Positions 2-63,194 of a DNA stretch of 64,000 nt are shown one piece after another (the first letter of the stretch is position 1; every line of letters begins with the position of its first letter). The stretch covers positions 2,255 to 66,254 of the forward strand of contig JBBIRD010000001.1 of the NCBI GenBank assembly GCA_037441965.1, in the 5' to 3' direction. A program made the position numbers and the translations under genes. The notes below the pieces were generated by a model. The model worked only from the letters and a program-made list of their open reading frames with translations. It was not told the DNA's origin and made no database searches. This DNA comes from Candidatus Moraniibacteriota bacterium. Lineage in GTDB: Bacteria > Patescibacteriota > Minisyncoccia > Moranbacterales > UBA1568.

Positions 2-757
2 ATCACCGATATCACTTTGAAGACTGATCAGAACATCACGACACTTGCAGGTCTTCAAGCCTCGATCGATACACAACTTACTGTGATTGGTACAGAGATG
101 TCTCTCTTGAAAGCAAAGAATGTAGATTATGATACTTATTTTGCAGATAATCTCGCTCATCTCACGACACTTGATACGACAACAGCAACACTGCGTAGCG
201 ATCTTACCCTCGAGACTTCCAAAGTAGCACTGCTGGAAACACAGGTACAGTCGCTTATGGATTTCTATGCAAGTTTTGATCTTGGGAAGAGTCTTATGAA
301 AGATGTTGCAGGTAATGTCGATTTGACGGTTGATAGTTTAGGGAATCCGGTAACGCTTGGCGGTAAACTCAAAGCGGTTATTCTTGAAACAGGAGAACTT
401 GCTATCACCGTAGTCGATCCACTCGCTCCGACGATCGGTACTGCTGAAATTTTGCCAGTAGCTGTCGATGCGAATGCTGATGGCAATGATGATTATTCAC
501 TCCTTCCGATGACGGACCCTATCGTCATCGCTCGTGATGGTACATCGGTTCAGGTGATGACCAAAGCGATGATTCCGATGGTCAATGGATCGCGTATTTT
601 TACAACATTTAAGAATAATCCAGGAGGATCGAGTTGGGTAGAAAAAACGAAAGATACTCACAACGACTTTGTCGGTTTCCAAATCAAACTTTCGGCGCCA
701 GTTTCTGTCCCGACCAAAGTCGATTGGATCCTTATCGAAGAAAAGAACGGGAAATAG
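2..757 (+). CDS. Hypothetical protein, 5' partial: coiled-coil N-terminal part, beta-rich C-terminal part
   Basis: The reading frame is open from the window edge, since codons 2-16 contain no stop; the track start at 17 is a TTG. There are no recognisable catalytic motifs. Confidence 0.5.
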   Translation: MTDITLKTDQNITTLAGLQASIDTQLTVIGTEMSLLKAKNVDYDTYFADNLAHLTTLDTTTATLRSDLTLETSKVALLETQVQSLMDFYASFDLGKSLMKDVAGNVDLTVDSLGNPVTLGGKLKAVILETGELAITVVDPLAPTIGTAEILPVAVDANADGNDDYSLLPMTDPIVIARDGTSVQVMTKAMIPMVNGSRIFTTFKNNPGGSSWVEKTKDTHNDFVGFQIKLSAPVSVPTKVDWILIEEKNGK

Positions 758-830: not shown

Positions 831-3800
831 ATGGTTCGTATCTCACCAAAAAATATTCTTTTGTATGTAGCACTCCTTGTAGTGCCTCTTTTTGTTTACA
901 TTTTTTGGCAAATGTCTTCTCCAGAAACGATCGTAAAGACCGTCAAAAAATATGAACAAGCTGGAGAGAAAGTAAGGCAAGATCTTATCAAGAGCCCGAC
1001 TCTTCCAATAGTAGAAAAAGAGAATACATATCAGGTAGTTGACTCTTCGATAGAAGATATCAGTATTCAATATGCAAAATATAGCGAAAGCATACCGCCC
1101 AAGGATGATGAGAATAATCAGCAGAATGAGCAAAAAGATCATCAAAATGGAGAAGAAAAGAAACCGCAAGATCTGTTCAAGAAACCCACTCTTTCTATCG
1201 ATTTTCCAAAAAATTATTCTCAACCAATCAATATAAAACTTGATGCAGAGAGAATGATAGATATTACAGATCTCTCTGGAACGAGTGATTATTCAGTATC
1301 GACTATTGCTCGAGAAATACCAGAGAAAAATGATCTCTCTACATCATCAATAAATAATCCTGACAGATCATTATTTCGTAAGAGTCTTGAACAGAAGTTA
1401 TTTGGTATTGATATACGGAAAATCTTTCAGAAAACGCCTTCAGAAGATACCATCCTTCACTATACGAGTCGTGACGGACGCAAGTCACTTCTGTACACAT
1501 TTATCAAAGACCCTTCTACTGGAGAGAAAACACTCAAACATTGGACTCTTTATGAATACGGTACCGGTACAGAACAAGAGCAATACCAATTTTCAAATGC
1601 CAAGGTTAAGATAAATGCTGAAGGTATCGCAGAGGTCTATTATTTTGGGACGCAAGAAATTCAGAATGAAAAAGTAAAATCAGAAGTGAGTCCTGATCTC
1701 TTGGCACGAGCACAGCGGGCAATGGAGAAAGAAACAGGTCAAGATATCCTTCTGAGTAGGAATAATCCAGATTTTACTCTTCCTGCACCGTATTATATCG
1801 ATAAAAACGGAGAACAGCACAATGCAGAATGGCAGTGGAATGCTGATAAACAGATACTCTCAGTGAAATTTGATCCAGAGAGAAATATGTATCCGATCGC
1901 TCTTGATCCGACACTTTCTTTTACTGCTCCGGGTCAATCAAATTCGATGAGTATGATAACAGGATCGAGTCCTTCGTCCTTTGCGATTGGTGATTTCAAT
2001 AATGATGGGAAAAATGATCTGGCTGTTGGAGCTGATACGGTAGTGATTTTTTACGGTGGCTTTACCTTTTCAAAAAGTGTTGATTCTGCAGATGTTGTTA
2101 TCAGTAGTACCTCTTATGATGGCGTGGGATTTGGAGCTGGACTAGTTGCAGGAGATTTTGATGGTGACAATAAAACTGATTTACTCGTTCTTGGAAGTTG
2201 GGGAACATGGTATGATCCTGACTACGCCGTATATATATTTTATAATAGCTCCATTCGTACAGGATCTTATAACAATGCCGATTTTCAGAATAGCTCTTTC
2301 AGGGGAAGGCTTTCTATTGGTTTAGGCGATTTGAATGATGATGGGAAAAAAGATCTTATAATAGGAGAACCTAATAATCGTTATAAAGCCGATTCGGTCT
2401 ATATCTATTATGCAGGTATTCCTCTGTCAAGTGGCCCGCAAGTGACTCTCACAGGCATCACTGATACGGATGGAGGAAATCTGAGAGGTGCTTTCGGAAG
2501 TTCTTTTGGTGTCGGTGATTTCAATGCGGATGGCAAGAACGACATTGCTGTGAGCGCTCCCGCTTTTGGATCGTATTATAATACTGGACAATATCCTGGT
2601 TGGTATAATACATACCAAGGGAGAATATATATTTTCTACGGTGGTTCTATCACTACAAAGAATGCTTTATCTGCTGATAGAGTGATCATTGGTGAAGCAG
2701 GTGGGCTAGGTAGAGAAATTTCAGGAGTGGTCGATCTCAATGGAGATGGATATGTAGATATTTTGACAATAGATACCGGTCCGCAAAAACTTTCAATGTT
2801 TTATAACAATGCGGGTACTATTTCTACTCCTCCTGATGTTTCGATTGCTTCTGCATTTGTTTATGGTGCCACTTGGAATGATTTTAATGGTGATGGGCGT
2901 GCTGATTTTGCGATAATAAATCGGTTTTATTCAAGTATAGATATTATTTATAATGATGGTGATTATCCGGCGGATATGGCTAATGCTGATGTGCGTATTG
3001 GTGGACAACCAGTATTTTATAATAAGGCACATATTGTGTCTTCAGGCGATTTGAATGGTGATGGACAAGCAGATATCGTGACAAATTCACAGGATGGATC
3101 AAATACATCTATCCTCTATTCTCAGAATGGACAAGTGAACACAAATCAGTATGCTCTTGGAGAAGCATCAGGAGATGCTTTCGGCACTGCTATGGTTGCA
3201 GGAGATTTCAATGCTGATGGCACGACGGATCTCGCAGTAGGTGCACCTGCTGGATCTGGACACTCTTCGAATACCGGACGAGTCTATCTTTTTTATAACC
3301 GAGGATCATATCCTCGTGATGCCAGTTCTGCTGATGTGATTATTGACGGAGGAGCGATAGATGATTTTTTTGGTTTTTCATTGATTGCTGGTGATTTCAA
3401 TGGCGACAAAAAAATTGATTTTGCGGTCGGGTCCCCAGGAAGTTCTTTGAATACTGGAAGTACATATGTTTTCTATGCAGATGGGACAAATGATTTTGGA
3501 ACAATATTTTGTACCTCGAGCTTTCCGACGCTTTGTAGCGCAAGCAATGCTGATGTTATCCTTACAGGTGGATTGCCTGGCATTGGGATTGGATCGTCGT
3601 TTGGAACAACACTCACAACGGGTGATTTCAATAGTGATGGAAAAATGGATCTGGCTATCGGTGCCACAGGATATAGTTCAAATACTGGGAGTGTATCTGT
3701 ATTCTATGCCCCATTTAGCGGAGTGAATGTTACTCTGACGGGAGAAAATGTTAATGATTTGTTTGGAAAAGCGCTGATAGCGGGCGATTTCAATCATGAC

Positions 3801-6800
3801 AATAGGACCGACCTTGCAGTCGGGGCTACGGGATATAGTTCTGCCACTGGTCGTGTCTATTTGTTTTACAATAGTGGGAGTACTCTCCCTACGACTGCCA
3901 GTCTTACGATTACCGGATCTCAGACAACTCAGTCTTTCGGATATGCTTTGGCAGTAGGAGATTTCAATGCTGACAATAGTACGGATCTCGTGGTAGGGAC
4001 TCATTCGGATTTTCTCTTTCCGAGAATGTGTACTGATGATCCTAGTGCTGACTTCGTTATTTATTATCCCTGTAATTATTATGATGCTGGGAGGGTTTAT
4101 ATTTTCTATGGTGATAGTACTATTCCTACGACCGCTAATACGGCAGATATTATCTTAGATGTTAATGACTTGTCCGCCACTGCACAACCACGATATTTTG
4201 GATCTTCATTGGCCACAGGAGATTTGAATGCTGATGGGAAAATAGATTTGGTTATTGGACAACCAAATTACGACGGCACAACTTATGTTGGTCTTGTTCG
4301 TATTCTCTATAATGATGGTGCTCTTGGGACTGATGTAACTATTAAAGGATGGAGCAATAATTCTTTTCTTGGTACCAGTCTTGTTACAGGAGATTTCAAT
4401 GCTAATGGTCGGACAAACTTGGTTGTGGGAGAAGGATTATCAGTTGGTGCAGGACGGATATCATTTTTCGAAACGCGTGATAATTTTGTATGGAATCCTC
4501 AAACATTGTCTCTCGCAGAAGGAGCGACAATGAAAGGTGATATGCTTGGTCAAGAGCAGAGAATCTCTGGTAGTGTAAATGCGGAGTTGTTTGGGAGTTC
4601 TCTTGCATCAGGGGATTTCAATAATGACGGGAAGAATGATCTCGCTGTCGGAGCGAGCGGATCATCTTCTCTCTATATATTTTATGCTGATGGCGAATAC
4701 CCTGTGAGAAGTTCAGATGCGAATGTTGTGATCAAAGGAATGTCAGTGACAGGATTAGGAACCACCCTTATCGCTGGAGACTTTAATGATGATGGAAAAA
4801 CTGACATTGCTACATCTAATCTCGAGTCTGTCTATATTTTCTATAATGATGGTTCATATCCTTTAGATGCTGTTACTGCGGATGTTGTTATTGCCGGAGA
4901 AACAGCCTATAGTTCAGGTTCTGCTTTTGGATCTTCGATGGTTTCGGAAGATATGAATGATGATGGGAAGAAAGATCTCGTTATCGGTTCATACGGATAT
5001 TCTACTTCTGCTTTTACAGCGACGAACACCGGTCGCGTGTATATCTATTATGCGAACGGAACACGAAATTTTGTCTGTACAACATCTCCTTGTACGGCTT
5101 CGGATGCTGATGTGATTATTAACGGATCAGAAGGATCCTATTTTGGTTATCAGATAGTGACAGGCGATTTTAATACCGATAATAAGACAGATTTGACGGT
5201 GAGTGCGCCTTTCCTTCAGACGAGTAATACAGGTAGAGTATACATATTTTATGTTGATGGGACTAATAATTTTGGAACAACGAGTTGTGTTGGAACGCCA
5301 GCACTCTGCAATGCTAGTGATGCTGATGTAACGATTATGAGTGAGGTGATTTCTTCTATGAATATCGATGGACTTGGTTACTCGATAGCTTCTGGTGATC
5401 TCAATAATGATGGGAAAATAGATTTGGCTATTGGAACGCAATCGTATTGTTATGACGATATTACTCAAGGTTGTTCTGGACGTATGTATTTAATATATAA
5501 TCAAGGTTCTGGGATATATCCTGCAAATGCAGGGGGTGCTGATGTGATCATAGCTGGTGGGCAAGATAGTTTTCTTGGTAGAAAGATTGCTATTGGTGAT
5601 GTTAATAGAGATAATCGTGAAGATCTTTTGGTATGGAGAGGAGATGTTACTAGTACTCACTATCTGGATGTATTTCTCAATGATGGATCAGGGTATCCGA
5701 CAAATCTCTCTGGAATAATAGAAAGTGATGTTAATTTTACTTATCCAGCAATGACAAATGATATGGACTCTTCTCAGGTTATTTTTGATGATTTGAATGC
5801 TGATGGATATCAAGATCTCGTCATCAGTGATATTGGTTTTAATGGAAAAGGAAAGATTTCTCTTTATACAACAAATGATACGAGTATCAGTGGTGAAGCA
5901 ACAGGAAATTATTTTGGTTCAGCTCTGGCAATAGGAGATTTTAATGCTGATGGGAAGAAAGATCTTGCTGTGGGTGCGCCCGGATATTCTTCAAATACCG
6001 GTCGTGTATATATTTTTTATAATGATAATCATCTTCCGTCATCTGCTTTTCTGGCTGATGCCATTATCACAGGCGAGACGACAGGTGATCAATTTGGGAA
6101 ATCGATTTCTCTTGTTGATTTCAATATTGATGGAGAACAGGATCTGGTTGTTGGTGCGAGTGGATATAGCACAAGTAAAGGAAGTGTATACTTTTTTGCT
6201 AATCTTGGAACAGGGGTTTATCCTGTGTCTGCAAGTGGTAGAGATACATTGATTGTTGGTGAGGCGGACAATAATTATTTTGGTGAAGTATTAGCATCAG
6301 ATGATATGGATCATGATGGATGGGCCGATATGGTTGTAGGTGCTCGAGGATATTTGTCAAATGCGGGTCGCGTTTATATGTTTTATTCGGATGGTGTATA
6401 TCCTGCAACATCCGATCTGGCAGATAGTATTATTACTGGTGAAACAGGCATCTTGTTCGGATCAGCTCTTGCTACAGGAGATTTTGATAGAGATGGCAAG
6501 AAAGATGTCGCAGTGAGTGCGCCTGGATATTCTTCAAATACCGGTCGTGTATATATTTTCTATTACAATGTAGGACTTGGCACATTTCCATCGACTGTTG
6601 CTACGGCCAATGCTACTATTACAGGATCTTTATATACACTTCCTGTGCCTTGCTATTTTTCTTGTACAGCTTTTGATCCATATTTTGGTTCAGCACTCGT
6701 TTCTAGTGATTTCAATAATGATGGCAAGACTGATTTAGCTGTTGGGTCTTACAATTATGGTTTTCAGAATTGGGATAGAGATCCTATGGATATCGATGCG

Positions 6801-7313
6801 AATCTCACTACATATCACTTTGGTCGTGTTGATATTTTTTATAATACTGCCACGGGTATATATCCTACGAGCGCGAGCAATGCTAATGTGACTATGGTAC
6901 CAGAATCAAATTCGTATCTTGGATCTTCTCTTTCTGTTGGTGATGTAAATGCTGATAAAAAGGCAGATCTGATAGCAGATGTTGCGAATGGTGTCTTTGT
7001 TTTTTATAATGATGGAGCGTACCCAGATAATGCCTATCCGGATATACGATCTGTTTTTGAACCAGATCTCAGGCCGTCGGTCAAAGTGAATACCCCTCAT
7101 ATTTCTGTCGTCGGCGACTTCAATGATGATGGAAAGGGTGATATAGTAACAGGTATCGGTGAATATTATTACTATGGGCCACTCTATTCTCAACTACTCA
7201 ATACGACTGGCTATGTGACGACAACGATTTCTGAAGTTCGTACTATTGATCGTTTCCTTCGTCTTCGCTTACGAGGCACTGCGAAATTTCAGGGACAAAA
7301 TAGTATACGATAA
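831..7313 (+). CDS. Giant (2160 aa) membrane-anchored surface protein with more than 25 FG-GAP/integrin-alpha-like repeats
   Basis: There is an N-terminal TM helix (LLYVALLVVPLFVYIFW). The motif GDFNxDGKxDLAVGAP...GRVYIFY recurs throughout, as do Cys-x(4-6)-Cys inserts (FCTSSFPTLCSASNADV, FVCTTSPCTASDADV, TSCVGTPALCNASDADV). Confidence 0.8.
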   Translation: MVRISPKNILLYVALLVVPLFVYIFWQMSSPETIVKTVKKYEQAGEKVRQDLIKSPTLPIVEKENTYQVVDSSIEDISIQYAKYSESIPPKDDENNQQNEQKDHQNGEEKKPQDLFKKPTLSIDFPKNYSQPINIKLDAERMIDITDLSGTSDYSVSTIAREIPEKNDLSTSSINNPDRSLFRKSLEQKLFGIDIRKIFQKTPSEDTILHYTSRDGRKSLLYTFIKDPSTGEKTLKHWTLYEYGTGTEQEQYQFSNAKVKINAEGIAEVYYFGTQEIQNEKVKSEVSPDLLARAQRAMEKETGQDILLSRNNPDFTLPAPYYIDKNGEQHNAEWQWNADKQILSVKFDPERNMYPIALDPTLSFTAPGQSNSMSMITGSSPSSFAIGDFNNDGKNDLAVGADTVVIFYGGFTFSKSVDSADVVISSTSYDGVGFGAGLVAGDFDGDNKTDLLVLGSWGTWYDPDYAVYIFYNSSIRTGSYNNADFQNSSFRGRLSIGLGDLNDDGKKDLIIGEPNNRYKADSVYIYYAGIPLSSGPQVTLTGITDTDGGNLRGAFGSSFGVGDFNADGKNDIAVSAPAFGSYYNTGQYPGWYNTYQGRIYIFYGGSITTKNALSADRVIIGEAGGLGREISGVVDLNGDGYVDILTIDTGPQKLSMFYNNAGTISTPPDVSIASAFVYGATWNDFNGDGRADFAIINRFYSSIDIIYNDGDYPADMANADVRIGGQPVFYNKAHIVSSGDLNGDGQADIVTNSQDGSNTSILYSQNGQVNTNQYALGEASGDAFGTAMVAGDFNADGTTDLAVGAPAGSGHSSNTGRVYLFYNRGSYPRDASSADVIIDGGAIDDFFGFSLIAGDFNGDKKIDFAVGSPGSSLNTGSTYVFYADGTNDFGTIFCTSSFPTLCSASNADVILTGGLPGIGIGSSFGTTLTTGDFNSDGKMDLAIGATGYSSNTGSVSVFYAPFSGVNVTLTGENVNDLFGKALIAGDFNHDNRTDLAVGATGYSSATGRVYLFYNSGSTLPTTASLTITGSQTTQSFGYALAVGDFNADNSTDLVVGTHSDFLFPRMCTDDPSADFVIYYPCNYYDAGRVYIFYGDSTIPTTANTADIILDVNDLSATAQPRYFGSSLATGDLNADGKIDLVIGQPNYDGTTYVGLVRILYNDGALGTDVTIKGWSNNSFLGTSLVTGDFNANGRTNLVVGEGLSVGAGRISFFETRDNFVWNPQTLSLAEGATMKGDMLGQEQRISGSVNAELFGSSLASGDFNNDGKNDLAVGASGSSSLYIFYADGEYPVRSSDANVVIKGMSVTGLGTTLIAGDFNDDGKTDIATSNLESVYIFYNDGSYPLDAVTADVVIAGETAYSSGSAFGSSMVSEDMNDDGKKDLVIGSYGYSTSAFTATNTGRVYIYYANGTRNFVCTTSPCTASDADVIINGSEGSYFGYQIVTGDFNTDNKTDLTVSAPFLQTSNTGRVYIFYVDGTNNFGTTSCVGTPALCNASDADVTIMSEVISSMNIDGLGYSIASGDLNNDGKIDLAIGTQSYCYDDITQGCSGRMYLIYNQGSGIYPANAGGADVIIAGGQDSFLGRKIAIGDVNRDNREDLLVWRGDVTSTHYLDVFLNDGSGYPTNLSGIIESDVNFTYPAMTNDMDSSQVIFDDLNADGYQDLVISDIGFNGKGKISLYTTNDTSISGEATGNYFGSALAIGDFNADGKKDLAVGAPGYSSNTGRVYIFYNDNHLPSSAFLADAIITGETTGDQFGKSISLVDFNIDGEQDLVVGASGYSTSKGSVYFFANLGTGVYPVSASGRDTLIVGEADNNYFGEVLASDDMDHDGWADMVVGARGYLSNAGRVYMFYSDGVYPATSDLADSIITGETGILFGSALATGDFDRDGKKDVAVSAPGYSSNTGRVYIFYYNVGLGTFPSTVATANATITGSLYTLPVPCYFSCTAFDPYFGSALVSSDFNNDGKTDLAVGSYNYGFQNWDRDPMDIDANLTTYHFGRVDIFYNTATGIYPTSASNANVTMVPESNSYLGSSLSVGDVNADKKADLIADVANGVFVFYNDGAYPDNAYPDIRSVFEPDLRPSVKVNTPHISVVGDFNDDGKGDIVTGIGEYYYYGPLYSQLLNTTGYVTTTISEVRTIDRFLRLRLRGTAKFQGQNSIR

Positions 7314-7403
7314 GAAAATTATCTCTATCTTTTGATAGAATAATTGCGATAGCAGAAGATATGCCAGTGAGAAAGAGAAATAACTTGAGGAAGCAATGAA
7401 ACT

Positions 7404-9293
7404 ATGGAGATGAAAAGATTTTTTCTCAAAAAAAGAATACTCTATATTTGTTTTCTTCTTCTTTCTATCTTTATTGGGAATAAATTTTTTGATTATCAGA
7501 AAACAGCACAGCATCTTCAAGGAATAGAGAAATTACTTGCGTTAACATCTGAAGATTTAAATGATATTAAATCTGATCCTCATAAAACAAAAGAGTCAGT
7601 AAGGGAAGCAATCGATGCATATTCTCAGCATATTTCAGACACCCTCTCGATTGCTCAAAAAATAACAAATATGGAGGCTTCTCAGGAAGCGTTCGTTGCT
7701 ATCTTTAGGAAGGTTGCTTCACAATTGGGAGATATCCGAATGATTCAGCAGAATACTGAATTAACATCATCACAATCTGGAATTATTGAAAGAATAAGAG
7801 ATGTAAATATGTATGTGCAGGAGCAATCAGTAGAGCGACTCACAACACTCGCTCAGAGTGATAACGCTATAGACCAATCGAAAGAAGGGAAGAAGATAGG
7901 TGCATTACCCTCTTGTTCTGATTGCAATGTTATTCTTATCTCCCTTACCACTCTTCGTCCTGATCGTATGGGTATTTATGGATATCAGAAACAAACTACT
8001 CCGCATATTGACGCATTCTTCAAGAACTCAATTATCTTCAGAAATACGGTTGCGCCTACTTCTTGGACTACCCCAAATGCTCTATCACTCTTTACTGCTG
8101 TTTTCCCATACCGACATAACATTATTTCAAGAGAAATTGATCCGATTTACAATCGAAAAATTCTGACATTGGCAGAGATGCTGAAAAAAAATAATTATAC
8201 TACAGGGGCATTTACAGGAGGAGGGGATTATAATAATAAATACAGTGGACTCAACCGTGGGTTTGATTTCTACCTTGATGAAGCAAATTATAAGACATTC
8301 AAAATAAAAGCAGATATTTCTATCGGGACAGGCCCTCTTTTTTATTCTCCACTTCGAGAGTTTCTTCCGCTAGGAACCGATTGGATGGAACAGAATTATA
8401 AAAAAAAGTTTTTTCTTTTCTTGCAGGGATATGATCCTCACTGTCCTTTGAGTCCACGCGAACCATTTGCTCAGCAATTTACTAAAAAGATGAAAAGTGA
8501 TGTAGATTTTTCTGTATGTCATACAACATACGATGATACGGAGCCATTATATGAAAATGGAAAGAAATATTGGGAAGTAATGACGACATCAGATGGAACA
8601 AGAAGCCCTTTCAAGATGCGACTTTCTCAGGAAGATGTTGATTATATGAATGCTCTGTATGATGCTCGTGTGGCAGAGATGGATTTTTATTTAAATAATT
8701 TCTTTGAAAAACTCAAGAGTCTTGGTCTAGAAGAAAAGACGGTGATCGTATTGATGGCAGATCATGGAGAGATGCTCGGAGAACACGGACGGTTTATGAG
8801 GGGTGGCACTATTAGAGGAAACTCATATAAGCAATCTCTTCATTTTCCTCTTCTTATCAAGCATCCAAAAATAACAGAACCTCTCATCGTGGAGGATATT
8901 GTGAATACAGTGGATATTATGCCGACACTTCTTTCTATGTTGGATATAACAGATCCTCAGGAAGATATACGACAAGGTCACTCGCTTCATATCTCAAACT
9001 TCCAGAGTGATCCGACCAATGAATATGGTTTTTCAGGAGCCAAATATGAAAGGAGTAATGTGATTGGATATTTTGATTTTCCTACTGCATCTGAATCTGT
9101 TCAGGACAAGAAATGGAAATTGATCAAAGAAACTATCTTCGATAATGATGGTTTTTCAGTAGAAAAAATCTCATATAAACTCTTTGATCTTGAGAATGAT
9201 CCTAACGAGAACATCAATCTTTATGACGCAGAAAGAGAAGAAGCAGAGAAGCTCAAAGTTGTATTAGAGAAGTGGCTTGATCAATATCGATGA
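7404..9293 (+). CDS. Membrane-anchored sulfatase/LtaS-like enzyme of the alkaline phosphatase superfamily
   Basis: It has an N-terminal TM helix and the metal-ligand motif DHGEMLGEHG. Where a sulfatase has CxPxR, this protein has TTPN, which implies a Thr nucleophile as in LtaS/EptA; that reading is an inference. Confidence 0.65.
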   Translation: MEMKRFFLKKRILYICFLLLSIFIGNKFFDYQKTAQHLQGIEKLLALTSEDLNDIKSDPHKTKESVREAIDAYSQHISDTLSIAQKITNMEASQEAFVAIFRKVASQLGDIRMIQQNTELTSSQSGIIERIRDVNMYVQEQSVERLTTLAQSDNAIDQSKEGKKIGALPSCSDCNVILISLTTLRPDRMGIYGYQKQTTPHIDAFFKNSIIFRNTVAPTSWTTPNALSLFTAVFPYRHNIISREIDPIYNRKILTLAEMLKKNNYTTGAFTGGGDYNNKYSGLNRGFDFYLDEANYKTFKIKADISIGTGPLFYSPLREFLPLGTDWMEQNYKKKFFLFLQGYDPHCPLSPREPFAQQFTKKMKSDVDFSVCHTTYDDTEPLYENGKKYWEVMTTSDGTRSPFKMRLSQEDVDYMNALYDARVAEMDFYLNNFFEKLKSLGLEEKTVIVLMADHGEMLGEHGRFMRGGTIRGNSYKQSLHFPLLIKHPKITEPLIVEDIVNTVDIMPTLLSMLDITDPQEDIRQGHSLHISNFQSDPTNEYGFSGAKYERSNVIGYFDFPTASESVQDKKWKLIKETIFDNDGFSVEKISYKLFDLENDPNENINLYDAEREEAEKLKVVLEKWLDQYR

Positions 9294-9305
9294 TATTTCT
9301 ATTGT

Positions 9306-9905
9306 ATGAAGTATAAAAGAATTTTTATTGTTATCATTATCAGTCTTTTTATTGGCATTGGTTCTAGTATTTTCTGGCAATTTTATTATGATCAGAAACA
9401 TTCATTGAAGAATCTAGGCTTTTCAATAGCTGGAAGAGAGAAGTTCTTTGTTGAAGAAAGATTCCCTCGTCATTTCTCTGATTATGAAGAAGAAGCTCTT
9501 TTTGCTAATGGAGAATCAGGTATCCTCCAACTTACATTGATTTCAAATCTCACAAGAGAGCGCGCACAAGAGTATGCTCGATCACAATTTTCCGTGTTTG
9601 AAAGTATGTTCGATAAAAGATTGCCACCATATCCAGAGCTTATTACCAATGCCACTGGTTGTGCTGATGAGTTTTTGCCACAGAAGAAGGAAACGCCCAT
9701 TGGAAACTATTATACGGCTTATGCAGGTAATCGATTTAATTTCGGTATCTGTGATCAGAGTATTGCCAAATATAAATCTGGTGTTGGTATTTTTTATTGC
9801 GAGAAACTTCGGCGAGAAGTGAAACTCTCTTATTTTATTGATAAATCTGAGAATTTTGATACAATAGATGCATTGATGAATTCATTCATCTGTCTTGATA
9901 AGTAA
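9306..9905 (+). CDS. Hypothetical membrane-anchored protein
   Basis: It has an N-terminal TM helix and sits 12 nt after the upstream gene and 13 nt before the next one. I recognise no motifs. Confidence 0.5.
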   Translation: MKYKRIFIVIIISLFIGIGSSIFWQFYYDQKHSLKNLGFSIAGREKFFVEERFPRHFSDYEEEALFANGESGILQLTLISNLTRERAQEYARSQFSVFESMFDKRLPPYPELITNATGCADEFLPQKKETPIGNYYTAYAGNRFNFGICDQSIAKYKSGVGIFYCEKLRREVKLSYFIDKSENFDTIDALMNSFICLDK

Positions 9906-9918
9906 TGTGTAAACGAAT

Positions 9919-11886
9919 ATGCAAAAAATTATTTTTTTTGTTGTTGTGATTATTTTTGGGGGAGTTTTCTTTTTTTCTTCTTTACAAAAGAAAGAAGTGA
10001 GTCAAGTGTATTGGTTTATTCCTGATGGTATGAGAGCTGATCCTGATGTTTTTAATATATATAAATGGGCAAAGGAAGGAAAACTTCCCAATATCAAAAA
10101 ATTAATGGATCAAGGCTCTTATGGATATTCTATCCCTGATTTTCCATCTCATACTCCAACAAACTGGGCATCATTGATGACTGGAACGCATCCTGTGACA
10201 CATGGTATCTCTGATGGCCCTATGCATGTCGAAGGTTATCCTCTCGAAAAACCCTCTGTTGCTGGTTTTGGTTCTCAGGCGAAAAAGACGGATCCTATCT
10301 GGAAGACACTAGAGTCAGCAGGGAAGAAAGTAGCACTTCTCTCTATTCCTGGATCAACACCGCCAGAATTAAAAAATGGTATTACAATTCGTGGTCGCTG
10401 GGCTCCTTGGGGTTTTGATACGCCTGCTATCAATTTTGAACCAAAAGAGAAACTAGAAGAACGCAAATCCACAGGAAGAGGATTTAAGCTTTTTTATCTT
10501 GGGCAACAATTAACGCAATTTATTGATAAAAATACTCCTTCCGAATGGAGTTTTTCACCAGAATCATTCAGTCCGAGTATAGAGATGAAAATAAATGTGT
10601 ATGGTATGACGCTTTTTGGTCTTGTGATAGATAAAACTGATGATAATGAAATAAACTATGACTCTGTTGTATTCTCTTTTGATAAGAAAACAGAGATAAC
10701 GACATTGAAACAAGGAGAGTGGAGTGATTGGACACCGGTAACGCTCACTTTCAAGGAATCAACAGTGGCCTCCGATATGAAAATTAAGGTTATCAAACTG
10801 TGGAATACGGGTAATTTCCGTGTTCGTGTTTTCTTCAATAACGCAAATGAGTTTCTTACAGAACCATCTTCTGTAGCGAGAGAGATGACAACAGCGATTG
10901 GGCCGATGGTTGATTTTGTAGACAACTGGCCTGCTCAACTGATTTATGAAGAAGAGGATAAAGATACGTTTCTTGAAGAAGCTAATATGTCATTAGATTG
11001 GCACAAGAAAGCAGCTGGATTTATGTTGGATACTTACAAGCCAGACTTTTTCATACAAGATACTTATACCCCAAATCAGATGCTTGAAAGCAGGTGGTGG
11101 CACGGGAAAATAGCTGGTGAGAAAATGGATTATAACACACAAGATTCTGCATCATCTGAGTGGAATGATATTTACTCGATGTATAAAAAGTTAGACGATG
11201 TTCTTGGAGAGGCGATGAAACATCTTGATAAGAATGCTCTTATTGTTCTTTCGTCTGATCATGGCATTATCCCTATTTATAAACAAATAAAAATTAATAA
11301 TCTTTTCGCTCAAAAGGGTTGGCTTAAATATACTATCAATCAGACAACAGGAGAACCAACGATTGACTGGGAGCATAGTAAGGTTGTTTATCTTAAGATG
11401 GCATATGTCTACATCAAACCAGAAGGACTAGGTGGTCCTTGGAAAAGGGGATCAGGACCAGAATATGAGAAATTGCGTCAGGAGGTGATAGATGCTCTAA
11501 AGGAGGTAAAAGATGATAATGGTGTGAGCCCGATTACAGAAGTAGTCCGATGGGAAGATGCTCCCTCTTTCCTTGAATTACCAACGGACAGAATCGGAGA
11601 TTTAGTGCTTGAGGCTACCCCAGGGTATCAACTATGGGAAGAAGTTGATGCTAATCAGCAGATATTCGGTAATCCGTTAACAACAGGATACAAACAAGCA
11701 GTAGATCCAAAAACGACAAAAGGATTGTGGACCCCGTTTATTATTGCCGGTCCTGGTGTAAAACAAGGATATCAGATGACTGATCCTATTAGTCATATCG
11801 ATCAACTTCCAACCATACTTGATCTTCTTCATATTAATATTCCTACTGATGTTGTAGGAAAAGTACTGAAAGAAATTCTTAAGTAG
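9919..11886 (+). CDS. Membrane-anchored nucleotide pyrophosphatase/phosphodiesterase (NPP)-like enzyme of the alkaline phosphatase superfamily
   Basis: It has an N-terminal TM helix and the NPP-type motifs YWFIPDGMRADPD, a SHTPTNWASLMTG Thr-nucleophile motif, and SSDHG. It also carries an extra C-terminal domain. Confidence 0.65.
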   Translation: MQKIIFFVVVIIFGGVFFFSSLQKKEVSQVYWFIPDGMRADPDVFNIYKWAKEGKLPNIKKLMDQGSYGYSIPDFPSHTPTNWASLMTGTHPVTHGISDGPMHVEGYPLEKPSVAGFGSQAKKTDPIWKTLESAGKKVALLSIPGSTPPELKNGITIRGRWAPWGFDTPAINFEPKEKLEERKSTGRGFKLFYLGQQLTQFIDKNTPSEWSFSPESFSPSIEMKINVYGMTLFGLVIDKTDDNEINYDSVVFSFDKKTEITTLKQGEWSDWTPVTLTFKESTVASDMKIKVIKLWNTGNFRVRVFFNNANEFLTEPSSVAREMTTAIGPMVDFVDNWPAQLIYEEEDKDTFLEEANMSLDWHKKAAGFMLDTYKPDFFIQDTYTPNQMLESRWWHGKIAGEKMDYNTQDSASSEWNDIYSMYKKLDDVLGEAMKHLDKNALIVLSSDHGIIPIYKQIKINNLFAQKGWLKYTINQTTGEPTIDWEHSKVVYLKMAYVYIKPEGLGGPWKRGSGPEYEKLRQEVIDALKEVKDDNGVSPITEVVRWEDAPSFLELPTDRIGDLVLEATPGYQLWEEVDANQQIFGNPLTTGYKQAVDPKTTKGLWTPFIIAGPGVKQGYQMTDPISHIDQLPTILDLLHINIPTDVVGKVLKEILK

Positions 11887-11951
11887 ATGCAGAGAAAAAG
11901 AAAGAGTCTTATCTTTTTTACCAGTGAAGGATTCTTAATGAAGAGAGATTA

Positions 11952-13040
11952 TTATCTCTCTTCATTGTATATTTTCTCGACGAAACTATTGTCTATATAT
12001 TGACGGAGATCAGCCTTCTTATCGATAGAGTGGTATTTGAACATAAGATCCTGCATTTCATTGAGAAGATCGATCGATACAGTTGGGTACAGGTCATAAT
12101 GCGGGGTATTCATACCATATTTTTCCCCTAGTTGAATATTGCTTCGAGTTTCTTTTATTGAGATTGCTGGGTTATTTTCTTTTGTTATATTCTGTTCGAA
12201 TCGGATTCTCTTCATATATGTTCGAACGATATGTTCAACTATTTCCGGATGATCTTTGATAAAATCTCGACGGAAAACAAGGAGGGCGTGTGAGAGTTCT
12301 GGATTAACCCAATCGAGTCTATGATAAATATACGCTTGTCCATTGTCCACCATATCGTAAAATTGTGTGAGATGGAAATATCCACCATCTGCTTCGCCAC
12401 TGATGATTTGATTTCTATATTCGTCATCATCTACTTGATCGTTGATGGTTACATCTTTCTCTTGAATGCCGATAGAGTTTAAAAATTCTCGTAAAAATAT
12501 CGCATCTCCTGGTCCTGATCTTCTCGTTACCAATGTTTTTCCTTTGATATCCTCAGGTTTTTTTATAGTGACACCGGTTCGAAATATAATCGCGTGACCT
12601 GGAAGATCTTTTGCATCATGTCCAAGTTCTGCGACTGCTACCATATCTATGCCTTGTATAATACCTTTAATGAAAGAACTTTCTCCTGGTGTCGATCCCT
12701 CCGCTTCCCCATCATTCATTTTCTTGAGCAATTCTTCACCTGTTGCTTTTGCAGCGTTTTCTTTATTTTCTATACTGTCATATTGTTTCGAAAGAATGTA
12801 GTAATTACTATTATCTCTTAGCGAGTGAGTAATAAACTGGACGGAAATGTTGTCAGTATCGAATTCATTCTCTGCGTATGCTCGATATAAGAGAGAAGTT
12901 CTTCCTCCAAGAAAATATGCAATTGAAATATCTTTGTGCACCTCTTGTTTTTTATCATTGTGGAAATACAAAGTTCCAACGATGATAACGGATCCGATGA
13001 GGAATATGAAGAATATTTTATGGTGCAGAAAATGAAGCAT
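11952..13040 (-). CDS. Membrane-anchored NMT1/SsuA-like periplasmic binding protein (ABC substrate-binding fold), orphan
   Basis: It has an N-terminal TM helix and a segment (IKGKTLVTRRSGPGDAIFLREFLNSIGI) resembling SsuA/TauA/NMT1 binding proteins. It also has a low-complexity E/K/G-rich insert, and no permease or ATPase gene lies nearby. Confidence 0.4.
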   Translation of the reverse strand: MLHFLHHKIFFIFLIGSVIIVGTLYFHNDKKQEVHKDISIAYFLGGRTSLLYRAYAENEFDTDNISVQFITHSLRDNSNYYILSKQYDSIENKENAAKATGEELLKKMNDGEAEGSTPGESSFIKGIIQGIDMVAVAELGHDAKDLPGHAIIFRTGVTIKKPEDIKGKTLVTRRSGPGDAIFLREFLNSIGIQEKDVTINDQVDDDEYRNQIISGEADGGYFHLTQFYDMVDNGQAYIYHRLDWVNPELSHALLVFRRDFIKDHPEIVEHIVRTYMKRIRFEQNITKENNPAISIKETRSNIQLGEKYGMNTPHYDLYPTVSIDLLNEMQDLMFKYHSIDKKADLRQYIDNSFVEKIYNEER

Positions 13041-13168
13041 AGTGTCGTTTCTATACAGTTGTGTTATGTCTCTTCACTTGTTTGTATTATACCACAGTTC
13101 CTCTGAGTAGAAGGATTTTCTTAAAAGTATGGTAGAGAGCATTTTTGAGTGATTTCTGTGGTATGGGG

Positions 13169-13197
13169 TTGACAAGGATAATGCTTTTCGATAGTAT
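13169..13197 (+). promoter_or_regulatory. Sigma70-type promoter (TTGACA-17-TAGTAT) upstream of rpsL
   Basis: The -35 TTGACA is at 13169-13174, followed by a 17-nt spacer and the -10 TAGTAT at 13192-13197, all read directly from the sequence. Confidence 0.55.
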
Positions 13198-13278
13198 AGA
13201 CAGTACGAAAAGCAACAGGCTTTTTTGTTTCTTTATGAGAAACATTTTTTCTTAAATAATCTTAATTTTTTTACTCCT

Positions 13279-13695
13279 GTGGCAACGATCAACCAGCTCA
13301 TCAAACACCCTCGCGCTTCTGCTGTGAAGAAGTCAAAATCACCAGCAATGACTTATTCTATCAATAGTATCAAGAATCGCAATACGCTTCACGATAGCCC
13401 TTTCAAACGAGGTGTGTGTATCAAGGTGTCTACAACTACTCCGAAGAAACCAAACTCTGCTCTCCGAAAAATCGCTCGTGTCCGTCTGACAAATGGTATG
13501 GAAGTTACTGCCTATATTCCTGGTGAAGGGCACAATCTTCAGGAGCACTCTATTGTTATGATTCGTGGCGGTCGCGTGAAAGACTTGCCAGGAGTCAGAT
13601 ATCACATTGTACGTGGTATTTTCGATTCTGCAGGTGTCGCACGCAAGCAGAGTCGTTCCAAATACGGTGCGAAGAAAGAAAAGAAGAAAGATTAA
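13279..13695 (+). CDS. rpsL: 30S ribosomal protein S12
   Basis: It contains [19 protein letters not shown] and [16 protein letters not shown]. The start is probably the GTG at 13279 (ATINQLIK...), not the track's ATG at 13225. Confidence 0.93.
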
Positions 13696-13723
13696 TTTTA
13701 TTTTGAAGTCTTAGAACGAAATT

Positions 13724-14191
13724 ATGCCAAGAAGAAAACGACAATTTACACGCGAATGGAAACCAGATACCTTGTATGGTAATTCTTTGGTAGGCCATTT
13801 CGTCGGTATGATAATGTGGAACGGAAAGAGAAGTGTCGCAGAGAGAGTTGTTTATGATTCTTTCGACATTATTCACGAACGCACGAGGAAAGGTGGTCTT
13901 AATACTTTTGAACAGGCTATCAAGAATGTTTCTCCACTCCTACAATTGAAATCTCGTCGTGTCGGTGGTGCAAATTATCAGGTGCCAGTACCAGTATCAG
14001 GAGATCGTCGACAAGTCCTCGCGATGCGTTGGATACGCGATGTCTGTCGTAAGCGCAAAGGAAAATGTATGGCAGAGAAATTAGCAGATGAACTCCTTGA
14101 TGCTTCGAACAAAGTCGGTTCTGCTATGAAGAAACGAGAAGAAACACATCGTATGGCCGAGGCCAACAAAGCTTTTGCTCACTTTGCCTAA
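13724..14191 (+). CDS. rpsG: 30S ribosomal protein S7
   Basis: The N-terminus MPRRKRQFTREWKPD... is characteristic of S7, and the gene follows rpsL in the conserved str-operon order. Confidence 0.93.
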   Translation: MPRRKRQFTREWKPDTLYGNSLVGHFVGMIMWNGKRSVAERVVYDSFDIIHERTRKGGLNTFEQAIKNVSPLLQLKSRRVGGANYQVPVPVSGDRRQVLAMRWIRDVCRKRKGKCMAEKLADELLDASNKVGSAMKKREETHRMAEANKAFAHFA

Positions 14192-39478: not shown

Positions 39479-42016
39479 ATGGAACCAGAAAAAACATCGC
39501 TGAGACATTTTGCAGAGACGAAAAATTATTCGATGATGAATAATCGCCCAACATTTGTAAATAACAAATCAGAAGAACCATCAGTTGATCGACAGAATAA
39601 ATATCCGAAGACTGCAGATATATTAGATGGTATTATATCCGTTGCACTGATTGGTTTATTTTTTGGTCTCCCGCTTTTTTTTACTGGACTGACGTTTCAA
39701 GGTATTGCTTTTGAAAAGCAGATGTATTTTTATTTTTGGTTGCTCCTTGGGTTAGTTGCATGGTCATCGAAAGGAGTGATATTAGGAGAATTGAAGATCA
39801 GACGAACTCCTATCGATATCCCCATTCTTGTTTTTTGGGTCTTTTATGGAGTCGCTTCTTTTTTTTCGATAGATCGTTGGCATAGCTTCTTTGGATTTTT
39901 TGGAGATCCATCGCACGGTTTTATCTCAATAACCGCACTCATTCTTACTTTCTATTTCATCTTAAGTCATTTCACAATGAAACGCTTTCAGATGATGTTC
40001 TGGTCACTCGTTGTTTCTGGTTTTCTTGTTCTTTTCTGGAGTCTTTTTGCTTTGATGCAAATTCATTTTTTGCCAGCATCTTTTGAAAAGTATGCTCCTG
40101 TTAGTCTTCTTGGCACTTTATCGAACTTAGGAGTATTTCTTTCTCTTCTTCTCCCTCTTTTCATAACAGCACTTTTTTCCTTGTGGCAAGATTTTTCATT
40201 GAGAAAAACATATAGAAAAGTAGGAACAATCGCACTTCTTCTTGCACTTCTTTTGACGCTCTTTTTGATCCTCGCGCTGAACGCGTTTGCTTCTTGGATC
40301 GTGCTTCTTGGTGGATTTGGCTTCTTTTTAGTGTATATTTTAGCACAAATTGTTCGTCCAAATGAAAAATTTGTTTTTGTTCCGATGGTTACTTTTGTAT
40401 TGTTACTTGGGTTTTTGATGATAGCAAATTATCAATTAGGTTTAATAAAAATTGCACTTCCTCTCGAAGCTACTCCAGGCACCACTCTTTCGTGGAAAAT
40501 TACCAAAGAAAGTTTGAAAGAAAATTTCTTTATGGGTGCGGGGACGGCAAATTATAGTTATGTATTTTCACTTTTTTATCCAAAAGAATATAATCTGACT
40601 CCTTTGTATACAGTGCGTTTTTATCAAGGCACCGGTCTCTTTTTTGAGGCATTGGCAACTATCGGCGTGATTGGTACTATACTTTTTCTTCTCCTCTGGT
40701 TTTCGTTTTTCTCAATCGGTGTGTATCTTCTTTCGTATGAGAAACAGAAGAATAAATTGTATTCATTGGGGTTATGGTCTATGGTAGCGATGCTTTTTCT
40801 TGCGAGCTTCACCCTTGCTATAAACGGAGCTCTTCTCATCTTAGGTGTTCTTATTGCCACATTGGCTTTTGGTGTGGTGTTCTGTGAAAGTCATTCTGAG
40901 GAAAAATACATTCAATTATCACTCAAGGCGAGTCCAAAATTTGCTCTGACACTCGCATTTACTTTTATGGTAGTATCCGCTGGGGTTGCGTATCTCTTTG
41001 TGTTTATAGGAAAGGTATTTGTAGCAGATATCTCTATGGCAGAAGCTGTTCGTATTTCTGCAGAAAAGCCGGATACAGAATCTTTGTCAAGATTTGCTCG
41101 AGCGATTAGTTTGTATCCAGAAGAAGGGCGTTATTATATGCGATTAGCTCAAGAGTATGTGACACTCGCTAATAAAGAGGCGAGTAAACCTGAAAATGAA
41201 CGAAATATGGATGTAATGAAGAACTATGCAGAACAAGCTATTTTCGTAGGGGAAACAGGAAGAAGAAAAATGCCGAATGATATAGCACAAATAGAATCTT
41301 TGGGAATGATTTATGAAAATCTTGGTTTGTATGATAGTACGGTGCTACTGAAAGCCATAGACATCTATAAGCGAGCGCAAGAACTTGAGCCACAAGGTCC
41401 TCTCTATACAGTAAAATTAGGTCAAATAAAGAAATTGTTAGCCGATGCAAAAGCCGAAGGTGCAGAGAAAGAGAGTTTATATAATGAATCAAAAGATTTG
41501 TTTCAACAAGCAATTGATCAGAAGGTAGATTTTGCTGTTGCATATTATGATCTCGCCATTATTCTTTCTCGACTGAAAGATATAGATGGTGCGATAACAA
41601 ATGCAGAACAAGCAGTAGCTTTTGAAAAAACAAACTTGAATTATGGGTACAATCTCGGTGTTTTGTATCAAATTCGTAATAAAGATGATGATAAGAAACG
41701 GGCAGAAAAAATGTTTAAAGATATTTTGTCTGTCAATGAGAAATTGATTGATGTTCGATTGAGCCTTGGTTTATTGTATGAAGATATGAACAAGAAAGAT
41801 TTTGCTATCACAGAATATAATAAGATTTTAGATTATTTACCAAAAGAAAAGAACGAAAAGATTACACAGACAAAAGATCAGATAGAACAGATGATTACGA
41901 ATGTGAGAAACGGAAAAGGGAATATAAATGCAAATGGCGAGAAAGCACCAGAAAGCGTATCAGAGAATATACCTTATACCTCTCCGATTGGCGCTCCAGC
42001 GCCTGTCGGACAATAG
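39479..42016 (+). CDS. Polytopic membrane protein (O-antigen-ligase/Wzy-like?) with C-terminal TPR repeats
   Basis: About 12 TM helices span the first 500 aa, followed by TPR-like repeats (AYYDLAIILSRL...). I cannot confirm the family assignment. Confidence 0.45.
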   Translation: MEPEKTSLRHFAETKNYSMMNNRPTFVNNKSEEPSVDRQNKYPKTADILDGIISVALIGLFFGLPLFFTGLTFQGIAFEKQMYFYFWLLLGLVAWSSKGVILGELKIRRTPIDIPILVFWVFYGVASFFSIDRWHSFFGFFGDPSHGFISITALILTFYFILSHFTMKRFQMMFWSLVVSGFLVLFWSLFALMQIHFLPASFEKYAPVSLLGTLSNLGVFLSLLLPLFITALFSLWQDFSLRKTYRKVGTIALLLALLLTLFLILALNAFASWIVLLGGFGFFLVYILAQIVRPNEKFVFVPMVTFVLLLGFLMIANYQLGLIKIALPLEATPGTTLSWKITKESLKENFFMGAGTANYSYVFSLFYPKEYNLTPLYTVRFYQGTGLFFEALATIGVIGTILFLLLWFSFFSIGVYLLSYEKQKNKLYSLGLWSMVAMLFLASFTLAINGALLILGVLIATLAFGVVFCESHSEEKYIQLSLKASPKFALTLAFTFMVVSAGVAYLFVFIGKVFVADISMAEAVRISAEKPDTESLSRFARAISLYPEEGRYYMRLAQEYVTLANKEASKPENERNMDVMKNYAEQAIFVGETGRRKMPNDIAQIESLGMIYENLGLYDSTVLLKAIDIYKRAQELEPQGPLYTVKLGQIKKLLADAKAEGAEKESLYNESKDLFQQAIDQKVDFAVAYYDLAIILSRLKDIDGAITNAEQAVAFEKTNLNYGYNLGVLYQIRNKDDDKKRAEKMFKDILSVNEKLIDVRLSLGLLYEDMNKKDFAITEYNKILDYLPKEKNEKITQTKDQIEQMITNVRNGKGNINANGEKAPESVSENIPYTSPIGAPAPVGQ

Positions 42017-42244: not shown

Positions 42245-42624
42245 AGAGAGTACGAATTGAGAAAGTGCTTTGCAGTACTTTTTTCTTTTCTCAAGAATAT
42301 TCTGTTGATTTTCCTGTCAAGTTATTTGTCAAACAGTTCTGAAGAAATATGTGTTTCTCTTTGTAATGAAGAGGTTCTACAAAGAGCAATATGTATTTCC
42401 GCAGAAGTGCCTTAACAACTTATGTCTTTTTCAAAAGAATCGAAGATTATATGGTAGCGGAAAGTGATCAGATTTTTTTGAGATAGTCTAAATAGAAAAG
42501 GTCAAGCAAATCATAACGAGAAAAAACAGTGCGTCGAATGAGCAAACATTCTTCACTGTTAACCGATTGTCCGTGAGCGTCTTTAGTTTCGATTAGAGCG
42601 TTTGCGGACAAGAGAAAAAAAGAA

Positions 42625-45550
<2,926 letters not shown>

Positions 45551-45675
45551 TCTTTTTTTCTAACCTTGTTTTCTTTTCGCAAGAAAAGAATCGAAGTTAC
45601 GGTTAGCAGTGAAGAGTGCTTGTTAAAAGGGGAATCTTATTCTATTATAGATAGACAAATTTGGAGGGGAATGTT

Positions 45676-45787
45676 TCCGGTGCTTCTAGCGTTGTGGACA
45701 CACCTGATCCCATACCGAACTCAGCAGTTAAGCACTTCAGCACCGATGGTAGCCTTTAGTGGCAAGAGTAGGACAGTGCCGGGAACA
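45676..45787 (+). rRNA. rrf: 5S ribosomal RNA
   Basis: CCTGATCCCATACCGAACTCAGCAGTTAAGC...GATGGTAGC is characteristic of 5S rRNA, and it lies about 125 nt after the 23S. Confidence 0.88.
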
Positions 45788-63162: not shown

Positions 63163-63194
63163 TATCTCCTATTTTTCTATCTGTACCTTTGATT

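Follow-up and report, generated by a model that had tools for sequence, protein, structure and literature searches.

The proteins described here belong largely to known families. Among enzymes of the alkaline phosphatase (AP) superfamily, their closest described relatives are the type I sulfatases and phosphonate monoester hydrolases (PMH; PF00884), the nucleotide pyrophosphatases/phosphodiesterases (NPP/ENPP) with PhnA and PafA, and the LtaS, EptA (MCR) and PbgA enzymes. Enzymes of the last group work on the outside of the membrane: their sulfatase-like fold carries a Thr nucleophile, one metal ligand is Glu/Asp, and five helices make up the membrane domain. To our knowledge, all characterized transferases of the superfamily (LtaS, EptA/MCR and PbgA) carry a polytopic membrane domain. 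FG-GAP repeats (PF01839/PF13517) occur in integrin alpha and in bacterial FG-GAP, VCBS and ASPIC proteins; in integrin alpha, only three or four blades have Ca loops.

We analysed a 64,000-nucleotide stretch of contig JBBIRD010000001.1 from a Candidatus Moraniibacteriota bacterium (the window), in which a giant FG-GAP protein gene, g1, is followed on the same strand by g2 (a sulfatase-fold enzyme), g3 (a small protein) and g4 (an NPP-like enzyme). The first-pass annotation had read the four genes as one adhesion and envelope-remodelling module. We found instead that g2, g3 and g4 form a recurrent trio in bacteria and archaea, whereas g1 is probably a lineage-specific neighbour. The gaps between the genes are 90 (g1-g2), 12 (g2-g3) and 13 (g3-g4) nucleotides (nt), and all four genes are on the + strand (Table 1). 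Each product, like that of a convergent gene for an NMT1-type solute-binding protein (SBP), has a single hydrophobic segment, located at its N terminus, so that an anchored position on the outer side of the cytoplasmic membrane is predicted for all five proteins. Coordinates and hydrophobicity thus agree with the gene layout and anchors first proposed.

Conservation and distribution of the trio

We collected the 80 best genome loci by g4 profile, added contigs by exact look-up, and searched the six-frame open reading frames (ORFs) of these loci with the window proteins. This yielded 84 non-redundant g4 loci, 51 of which extended 3 kb or more to either side of g4 and were used for proximity counts. 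A g3 gene was present within 3 kb of g4 in 37 out of 51 loci and a g2-type gene in 36 out of 51; one or the other was present in 43 out of 51. Both were found within 5 kb of g4 in 34 out of 51 loci. Order and strand varied. The nearest relatives have the order g2-g3-g4, and in Gottesmanbacteria-like loci g4 is followed by an opposite-strand g3 and a pair of g2 paralogues. Tandem g2 paralogues numbered one to five per locus (five in L046, four in L087). The genes have also been fused: we identified Sulfatase::g3 fusions (P0271, P0195 and P0274), an NMT1::g3, that is SBP::g3, fusion (P0218) and, in Pseudobdellovibrio, g2::g4 fusions encoded by single ORFs of 1046-1049 amino acids (aa; L054, 8702-11842; L070, 4111-7260).

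By contrast, FG-GAP genes were rare near the trio. Searching the locus ORFs with g1 by phmmer matched g1 alone, and FG-GAP neighbours were sought by a Ca-loop regular expression, a repeat hidden Markov model (HMM) and phmmer with ASPIC-type proteins. Only 3 of approximately 86 other non-redundant loci had FG-GAP/ASPIC-type genes no further than 10 kb from g4: three such genes about 5 kb upstream of the trio in L005, one or more directly downstream of the g2 paralogues in L087, and a further case in L067. All were of a different, ASPIC/UnbV-type architecture of 590-890 aa. In L002 and L007, whose g4 proteins are 73-74% identical to that of the window, the unit starts with g2, a divergent NMT1-type gene precedes it and there is no FG-GAP gene; in L004, a Laminin_G_3 protein is encoded upstream of g2 where g1 stands in the window. 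A pattern scan of metagenome contigs found no relatives of the g1 N-terminal domain. Because the trio recurs and FG-GAP genes are rare beside it, we take g2-g3-g4 as the conserved unit and g1 as a lineage-specific neighbour; the two are probably separable things that stand side by side by chance in this lineage. The proposal that the giant FG-GAP protein belongs to the enzyme module therefore found no support, and across the g4 loci the downstream genes were not conserved beside giant proteins of the g1 kind.

The NMT1-type protein matched PF09084 above cut-off (2.1e-12), SsuA_fam at 1e-14 (score 54.5 against a cut-off of 163.5) and SsuA in the PDB at 4e-7. Its orthologues flank the trio in L002, L003 and L007 and also occur in L016, L017, L020 and L027. 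A second set of related genes lies on the opposite strand in L002 (6051-9764 and 9767-12247) and L007 (9486-13120), comprising an AP-superfamily protein of 345-370 aa, a g2 paralogue and an NMT1-type protein; in L002, TagD-like and TagF-like genes stand next to this set. L002 and L004 both carry YcaO, nitroreductase and TPR genes.

By record title, the best 80 loci comprised 27 from the candidate phyla radiation (CPR), 19 from archaea (mostly Woesearchaeota, Nanoarchaeota and other DPANN), 10 from Bdellovibrionota and 24 others. The nearest g4 homologues carry Paceibacterota, Parcubacteria or Patescibacteria titles, in keeping with the Patescibacteria-like source implied by the first-pass annotation. 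Identity of g4 was 47-72% across CPR, DPANN and Bdellovibrionota; between CPR and archaeal sequences it averaged 55% (maximum 72%), compared with 59% within each group. A crude neighbour-joining tree of g4 interleaved CPR and archaeal sequences, a pattern that fits inter-domain transfer. Gene order and g4 (up to 92% identity to a CPR-titled sequence) place six loci titled 'Gammaproteobacteria' (L041, L053, L062, L077, L084 and L085) with Gottesmanbacteria/Woesebacteria-like CPR, and the crude tree sets four titled 'Methanosarcinales' (L019, L029, L035 and L044) among Woesearchaeota- or 'archaeon'-titled sequences.

The trio recurs near genes for the translation or transcription machinery. It adjoins rpsL/rpsG in the window (11952-14191), archaeal S12/S7 genes in the Woesearchaeota contig L088 (8450-16720), and rpoB/rpoC in L005 (10001-21977) and L006; a ribosomal-protein operon is also near the trio in eight other loci.

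Active sites and folds of the trio proteins

The g2 protein matched the Pfam Sulfatase family (PF00884) at E = 9.5e-40 over profile positions 2-301 of 301. Its nearest PDB sequence and NCBIfam matches were arylsulfatases, PMH and choline sulfatase, with NCBIfam scores all far under the cut-offs, and it shares with the type I sulfatases and PMH both the fold and the C-terminal DHGE...PL(I/L)I...D(I/L)xPT motifs. However, the formylglycine site of those enzymes, C/S-x-P-x-R, reads T-T-P-N-A in g2 (within SWTTP). In the family alignment of sequences from related loci, 89 out of 89 g2-type relatives have Thr at the formylglycine position, within T-(T/L)-P-x-x and a "SWTLP" motif from which the Arg is missing. 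The Thr nucleophile first proposed for g2 was thus borne out by alignment position. The ADHGE motif is retained. By contrast, the first metal ligand, the Asp on strand beta1, is replaced by Thr in g2 (SLTTLR, compared with SADQWR in 4uph). This holds for the g2 subfamily of the window (SLTTLR, SLTNTRKDH), in which the next residue is T or N; more distant paralogues keep the Asp (DTLRADHL).

With no formylglycine motif, g2 is ruled out as a true sulfatase. The same lack rules out radical SAM genes in the neighbourhood as sulfatase maturases; the one scanned neighbour with a second domain has a B12-binding domain and no SPASM match. Two genes with the FGE-sulfatase domain lie just upstream of g3-g4 in L089 (6178-7765, on a 766-kb contig), which is odd, as the g2-type enzymes have no formylglycine motif.

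Like LtaS, EptA and PbgA, g2 has a Thr nucleophile, a sulfatase-like fold and a predicted location on the outside of the membrane, and from the ligands that can be identified it also looks mononuclear. In place of their five-helix domain, though, g2 has one hydrophobic segment. It matched the C-terminal parts of the NCBIfam EptA, LtaS, YejM and MCR models weakly, over about 60-120 residues only, and the transferase scores were 10-30 times below cut-off (LtaS, 36.8 against 970; EptA, 37.1 against 561). Single-helix topology and these scores rule out g2 as an LtaS or EptA orthologue. Of the original "LtaS/sulfatase-like" label, the sulfatase fold stands; the LtaS part is weak, since arylsulfatases and PMH match better and the polytopic domain of LtaS/EptA is absent. 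A helical linker of about 140 aa separates the g2 anchor from the catalytic domain. Only the closest orthologues (629-649 aa) have this linker; the 499-aa orthologue of L004 does not. The linker gave a weak, sub-threshold match to IcmG/DotF.

For g4, the match to PF01663 (E = 6.2e-32) indicated an NPP core fold. Its AlphaFold model (mean predicted local distance difference test score 82) had ENPP6, ENPP4, ENPP7, NPP, PhnA and PafA as structural neighbours. Residue T79 aligns with the nucleophile column of ENPP1 (Ala in the 8ghr chain sequence), and D36, T79, D447 and H448 are invariant in 27 g4 homologues. These results agree with the first-pass description of g4 as an NPP-like phosphodiesterase with a Thr nucleophile.

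Several features set g4 apart from ENPP6, ENPP4, ENPP7, Xanthomonas NPP, PhnA and PafA. It is about 270 aa longer owing to two large insertions (approximately aa 186-312 and 465-600), which contain invariant residues; it has an N-terminal anchor; and its gene clusters with g3 and g2-type genes. Of the two-Zn site of NPP/ENPP enzymes (six ligands; D, T / D, H / D, H, H), the DxxxH motif and the last His, both of the second Zn, were not found in the g4 alignments, which show D381...N386 and, where PhnA has S-H-G-G, G590-Y-K-Q. A search of g4 aa 363-471 against the PDB, aimed at the second-metal ligands, returned chance matches only. The Asn that follows HGI in NPP, a phosphoryl contact at a position we take to be that of N111 in Xac NPP, also seems to be absent from g4, which has an invariant D99-G100 at that spacing. 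It is possible that g4 is a mononuclear NPP variant.

The third member, g3, matched nothing in Pfam or NCBIfam. When 1.84 billion representatives were scanned in full with HMMER, a family of 960 clusters emerged at E ≤ 1e-3; word-indexed searches miss this family because of its divergence (3 matches with g3 and 6 with a 49-sequence profile). Its signature is a PYPG...C...F.P motif with four invariant Cys residues (C119, C149, C165 and C196 in g3). The predicted fold is an alpha/beta sandwich, tentatively like that of PsbP, Mog1, DcrB and LpqN, with 2-11% identity to these proteins. Such structural relatives are mostly extracytoplasmic binding, adaptor or immunity proteins, some of them lipid-associated. 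Unlike PsbP/Mog1/DcrB/LpqN/DUF1795-type proteins, with which it has no sequence similarity, g3 carries its own motif and invariant Cys residues, is helix-anchored rather than lipid-anchored, and is linked specifically to AP-superfamily enzymes.

The FG-GAP protein, transcription and the rest of the window

In the HMM scan, g1 matched FG-GAP (PF01839) at E = 1.3e-173 in 20 stretches and FG-GAP_3 at E = 1.2e-76 in 16 stretches. A motif scan identified 28 Ca-loop motifs (DxNxDGxxD) between aa 388 and 2096, spaced 49-87 aa apart, and the strict form D.[DN].D[GNK]..D occurred 27 times, compared with a mean of 0.06 and a maximum of 2 in 500 shuffles. More than 25 repeats with Ca-binding-like loops had been predicted, and this count was confirmed. 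In register, the repeats follow the pattern FG...GD.N.DG..D...G...G.VY.FY. Repeats 1, 8, 15 and 22 rank among one another's nearest partners, similarity peaks at lags of 7 and 14 repeats, and the FG start is absent from repeats 7, 21 and 28. Because 28 is four times seven and the periodicity is seven repeats, four tandem 7-bladed propellers are the likely architecture. The g1 ectodomain is thus probably a row of four integrin-alpha-like, Ca-loop-bearing beta-propellers.

The repeat pattern, Ca-type loops and extracytoplasmic position behind a membrane anchor are those of FG-GAP surface proteins. Compared with integrin alpha, however, g1 keeps the Ca loop in all 28 blades; compared with integrin and ASPIC proteins, it has probably four tandem propellers, as well as six short Cys-pair loop inserts and an unassigned N-terminal domain of about 260 aa, and lacks both the thigh/calf and the UnbV_ASPIC domains. 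The 12 Cys residues form six local pairs in loops, with spacings of x7, x13, x4, x6, x7 and x3. The Cys-x(4-6)-Cys inserts of the first-pass annotation were thus too narrowly defined (x3 to x13; the example quoted there is C-x7-C). Its claim of regular repeat positions holds only in part: no more than three pairs, those of repeats 9, 17 and 18, have a position in common, in the loop just before "ASDADV"; those of repeats 12 and 19 have another, after the Ca loop; and that of repeat 25 stands alone. Overall, g1 is an ordinary kind of protein from a common repeat family, plausibly an adhesin or ligand binder.

The trio is very probably transcribed as one unit, given the gaps of 12-13 nt, the lack of a terminator before position 11936 and the synteny in relatives. 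After g4, the terminator scan and RNA folding identified an intrinsic-terminator-like hairpin (-30.7 kcal/mol, z = -3.57, with 0 out of 200 shuffles as stable); it closes the g2-g4 unit and extends into the 3' end of the convergent NMT1-type gene. No terminator was detected in the 90-nt g1-g2 spacer by the terminator scan (fold z = -0.7). This spacer contains a candidate extended -10 element, TGATAGAAT, which matches the consensus only, was not listed by the scan tool, and may be the trio's own promoter. In L002 and L007, whose units begin with g2, a similar AT-rich element precedes that gene; it is short and too weak to prove a promoter. The four-gene operon first proposed therefore very probably stands for g2-g4, with their short gaps and a terminator only after g4; g1 and g2, with no terminator but a -10-like element between them, may or may not be co-transcribed.

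Table 1. Features of the window, with positions counted from its first letter
Feature	Position (nt)	Strand	Remarks
g1	831-7313	+	2160 aa, from the ORF list
g1 signal-anchor			aa 8-26, followed by a charged low-complexity stretch
g1 unassigned domain			approximately aa 120-378
g1 FG-GAP repeats	1965-7310	+	28 repeats, aa 379-2160
Candidate extended -10 element	7333-7341	+	TGATAGAAT, in the g1-g2 spacer
g2	7404-9293	+	629 aa
g2 helical linker	7404-7900	+	aa 30-165
g3	9306-9905	+	199 aa
g4	9919-11886	+	655 aa
Intrinsic-terminator-like hairpin	11936-11967		bidirectional; 13-14 bp stem and U-run
NMT1/SsuA-type solute-binding protein gene	11952-13040	-	convergent with g4
ORF at window start	17-757		open back to base 2
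TPR protein gene	39479-42016		upstream of 23S rRNA
23S rRNA	42620-45556		
5S rRNA	45676-45784		
Radical SAM::PQQ-like beta-propeller ORF	59372-61945		
Second, related ORF	63189-63998		reaches the window end

The remaining window is an ordinary bacterial chromosome, with rpsL, rpsG, fusA, tuf, leuS and 23S and 5S rRNA genes; a run of short ORFs at 18.4-31.2 kb lay outside the scan. A TPR protein gene, and no 16S gene, lies upstream of the 23S gene, so that the rRNA genes are unlinked in this genome. The first ORF, which has no Pfam match and no hydrophobic segment, is open to base 2 and is thus the C-terminal part of a longer gene that the window start truncates. Towards the other end, a radical SAM domain is fused to a PQQ-like beta-propeller. 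Another 11 loci have related radical SAM ORFs no more than 10 kb from a g4 homologue; of two such ORFs scanned, one carries a B12-binding domain as well.

Possible function of the trio

We propose that the trio hydrolyses host- or prey-derived phosphoesters outside the cytoplasm and so salvages phosphate, head groups or nucleotides, a reading to which we assign a probability of about 0.45. In this scheme, Thr79 of g4 would attack a phosphodiester and form a covalent phospho-Thr intermediate at a metal site comprising D36, D447 and H448, and g2-type enzymes would process the resulting or related phosphoesters. The presumably disulfide-stabilized sandwich of g3 would act as a non-catalytic binding or scaffolding subunit, and the SBP-type protein would capture a small polar substrate or product. 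Likely targets would be phospholipid head groups, nucleic acids or nucleotides, and teichoic-type polymers that the carriers cannot make. We favour hydrolytic salvage because the nearest relatives of g2 and g4 are hydrolases, because neither protein has the polytopic domain of the known transferases, because g2 paralogues have expanded in tandem, because an SBP-type partner is present, and because the carriers have unlike envelopes and share a dependent or predatory lifestyle. The conserved clustering, the Rosetta-stone fusions, the similarity of g4 across domains and the rarity of FG-GAP neighbours also count in favour of this reading.

Several observations weigh against this proposal. No ABC transporter gene was found beside the SBP-type gene. 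The g2 subfamily, having lost the beta1 metal Asp, may be non-catalytic or have an altered metal site, and g4 seems to lack the second-metal ligands and the canonical NPP Asn, so its chemistry may differ. Conservation of g4 is unusually high for a scavenging exo-enzyme, and in some loci GT4, GT2, PMT_2 or TagD/TagF-like neighbours point to envelope glycopolymer synthesis. Many record titles look unreliable. Finally, since there is no terminator between g1 and g2, read-through into g2 is possible.

Part of this evidence suits a different role, in which g2-type enzymes and g4 would be LtaS/EptA-like phospho-alcohol transferases or trimming enzymes that attach, relocate or take off glycerol-phosphate, phosphoethanolamine or phosphocholine. 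Their targets would be lipids or surface glycopolymers of the cell itself, perhaps obtained from a host, and g3 would present the lipid or polymer. A Thr nucleophile in a sulfatase/LtaS-type fold, the weak C-terminal matches to EptA, LtaS, YejM and MCR, the resemblance of g3 to the lipid-associated LpqN and to DcrB, and the housekeeping-like conservation of g4 are all consistent with it, as are the neighbouring GT4 (nine loci), TagD/TagF-like (L002) and PMT_2/GT2 (L087) genes. However, only a minority of loci have such neighbours, hydrolases match best with the transferase models far behind, and neither g2 nor g4 has a polytopic membrane domain. Moreover, the envelopes of monoderm-like CPR, archaea and diderm Bdellovibrionota differ, which argues against an own-envelope polymer as the common substrate of a trio found in all three. 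On balance, we consider envelope remodelling the main rival reading, though an unlikely one.

We regard as improbable the operon of the first-pass annotation, in which g1 would bind the host surface and position both ectoenzymes. The genes do share a strand without a terminator in the 90-nt spacer, all the products are anchored at the same membrane face, and FG-GAP/ASPIC-type genes recur near the trio in three loci. Yet that recurrence is confined to 3 of approximately 86 loci and to proteins of another architecture; the nearest relatives start the unit at g2 after a divergent gene, with no FG-GAP gene; the g1 N-terminal domain had no detectable relatives in the pattern scan; and the spacer holds the candidate promoter element. 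We give still less credence to a partly non-catalytic assembly, in which g2 would be a pseudo-enzyme and, together with g3, a binding or regulatory partner of g4 as the sole active enzyme, g3 being an inhibitor or chaperone like the structurally related TplEi, Tsi3 and SciW. The nearest g2 subfamily, with Thr in place of the beta1 Asp and T or N after it, would fit such a role. Against it, that subfamily strictly conserves its Thr nucleophile, the Trp before it and the D/E-H-G motif, which argues for catalysis, and other g2 paralogues retain the beta1 Asp.

Our searches of the literature on COG3379, on alkaline phosphatases, phosphodiesterases and sulfatases of Patescibacteria/CPR, DPANN and Bdellovibrio, and on FG-GAP proteins of Patescibacteria yielded no description of the trio. 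The g3 family, which has no name, the conserved association of the three genes and the departures seen in the active sites appear to be new, although the enzyme superfamily of g2 and g4 and the repeat family of g1 are already known. Extending hydrolytic salvage, we tentatively suggest a wider picture that we ourselves hold to be doubtful. The trio, with the NMT1-type protein in the nearest relatives, would be an undescribed phosphoester-processing system that has been exchanged between bacteria and archaea and kept preferentially by small host-dependent or predatory cells (CPR, DPANN, Bdellovibrionota and Omnitrophota-like), where it would remove phosphate, nucleotides or head groups from the membranes or polymers of the host. 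In that picture, g3 would be a new family of disulfide-stabilized, substrate-presenting subunits and g4 a mononuclear offshoot of NPP.

CPR bacteria and DPANN archaea lack lipid and nucleotide pathways, and how they take up these compounds from their hosts is a long-standing question. Surface-anchored, conserved, kept together through rearrangements and fusions, and recurring in symbiotic and predatory lineages, the trio is a concrete candidate for the host-harvesting step.

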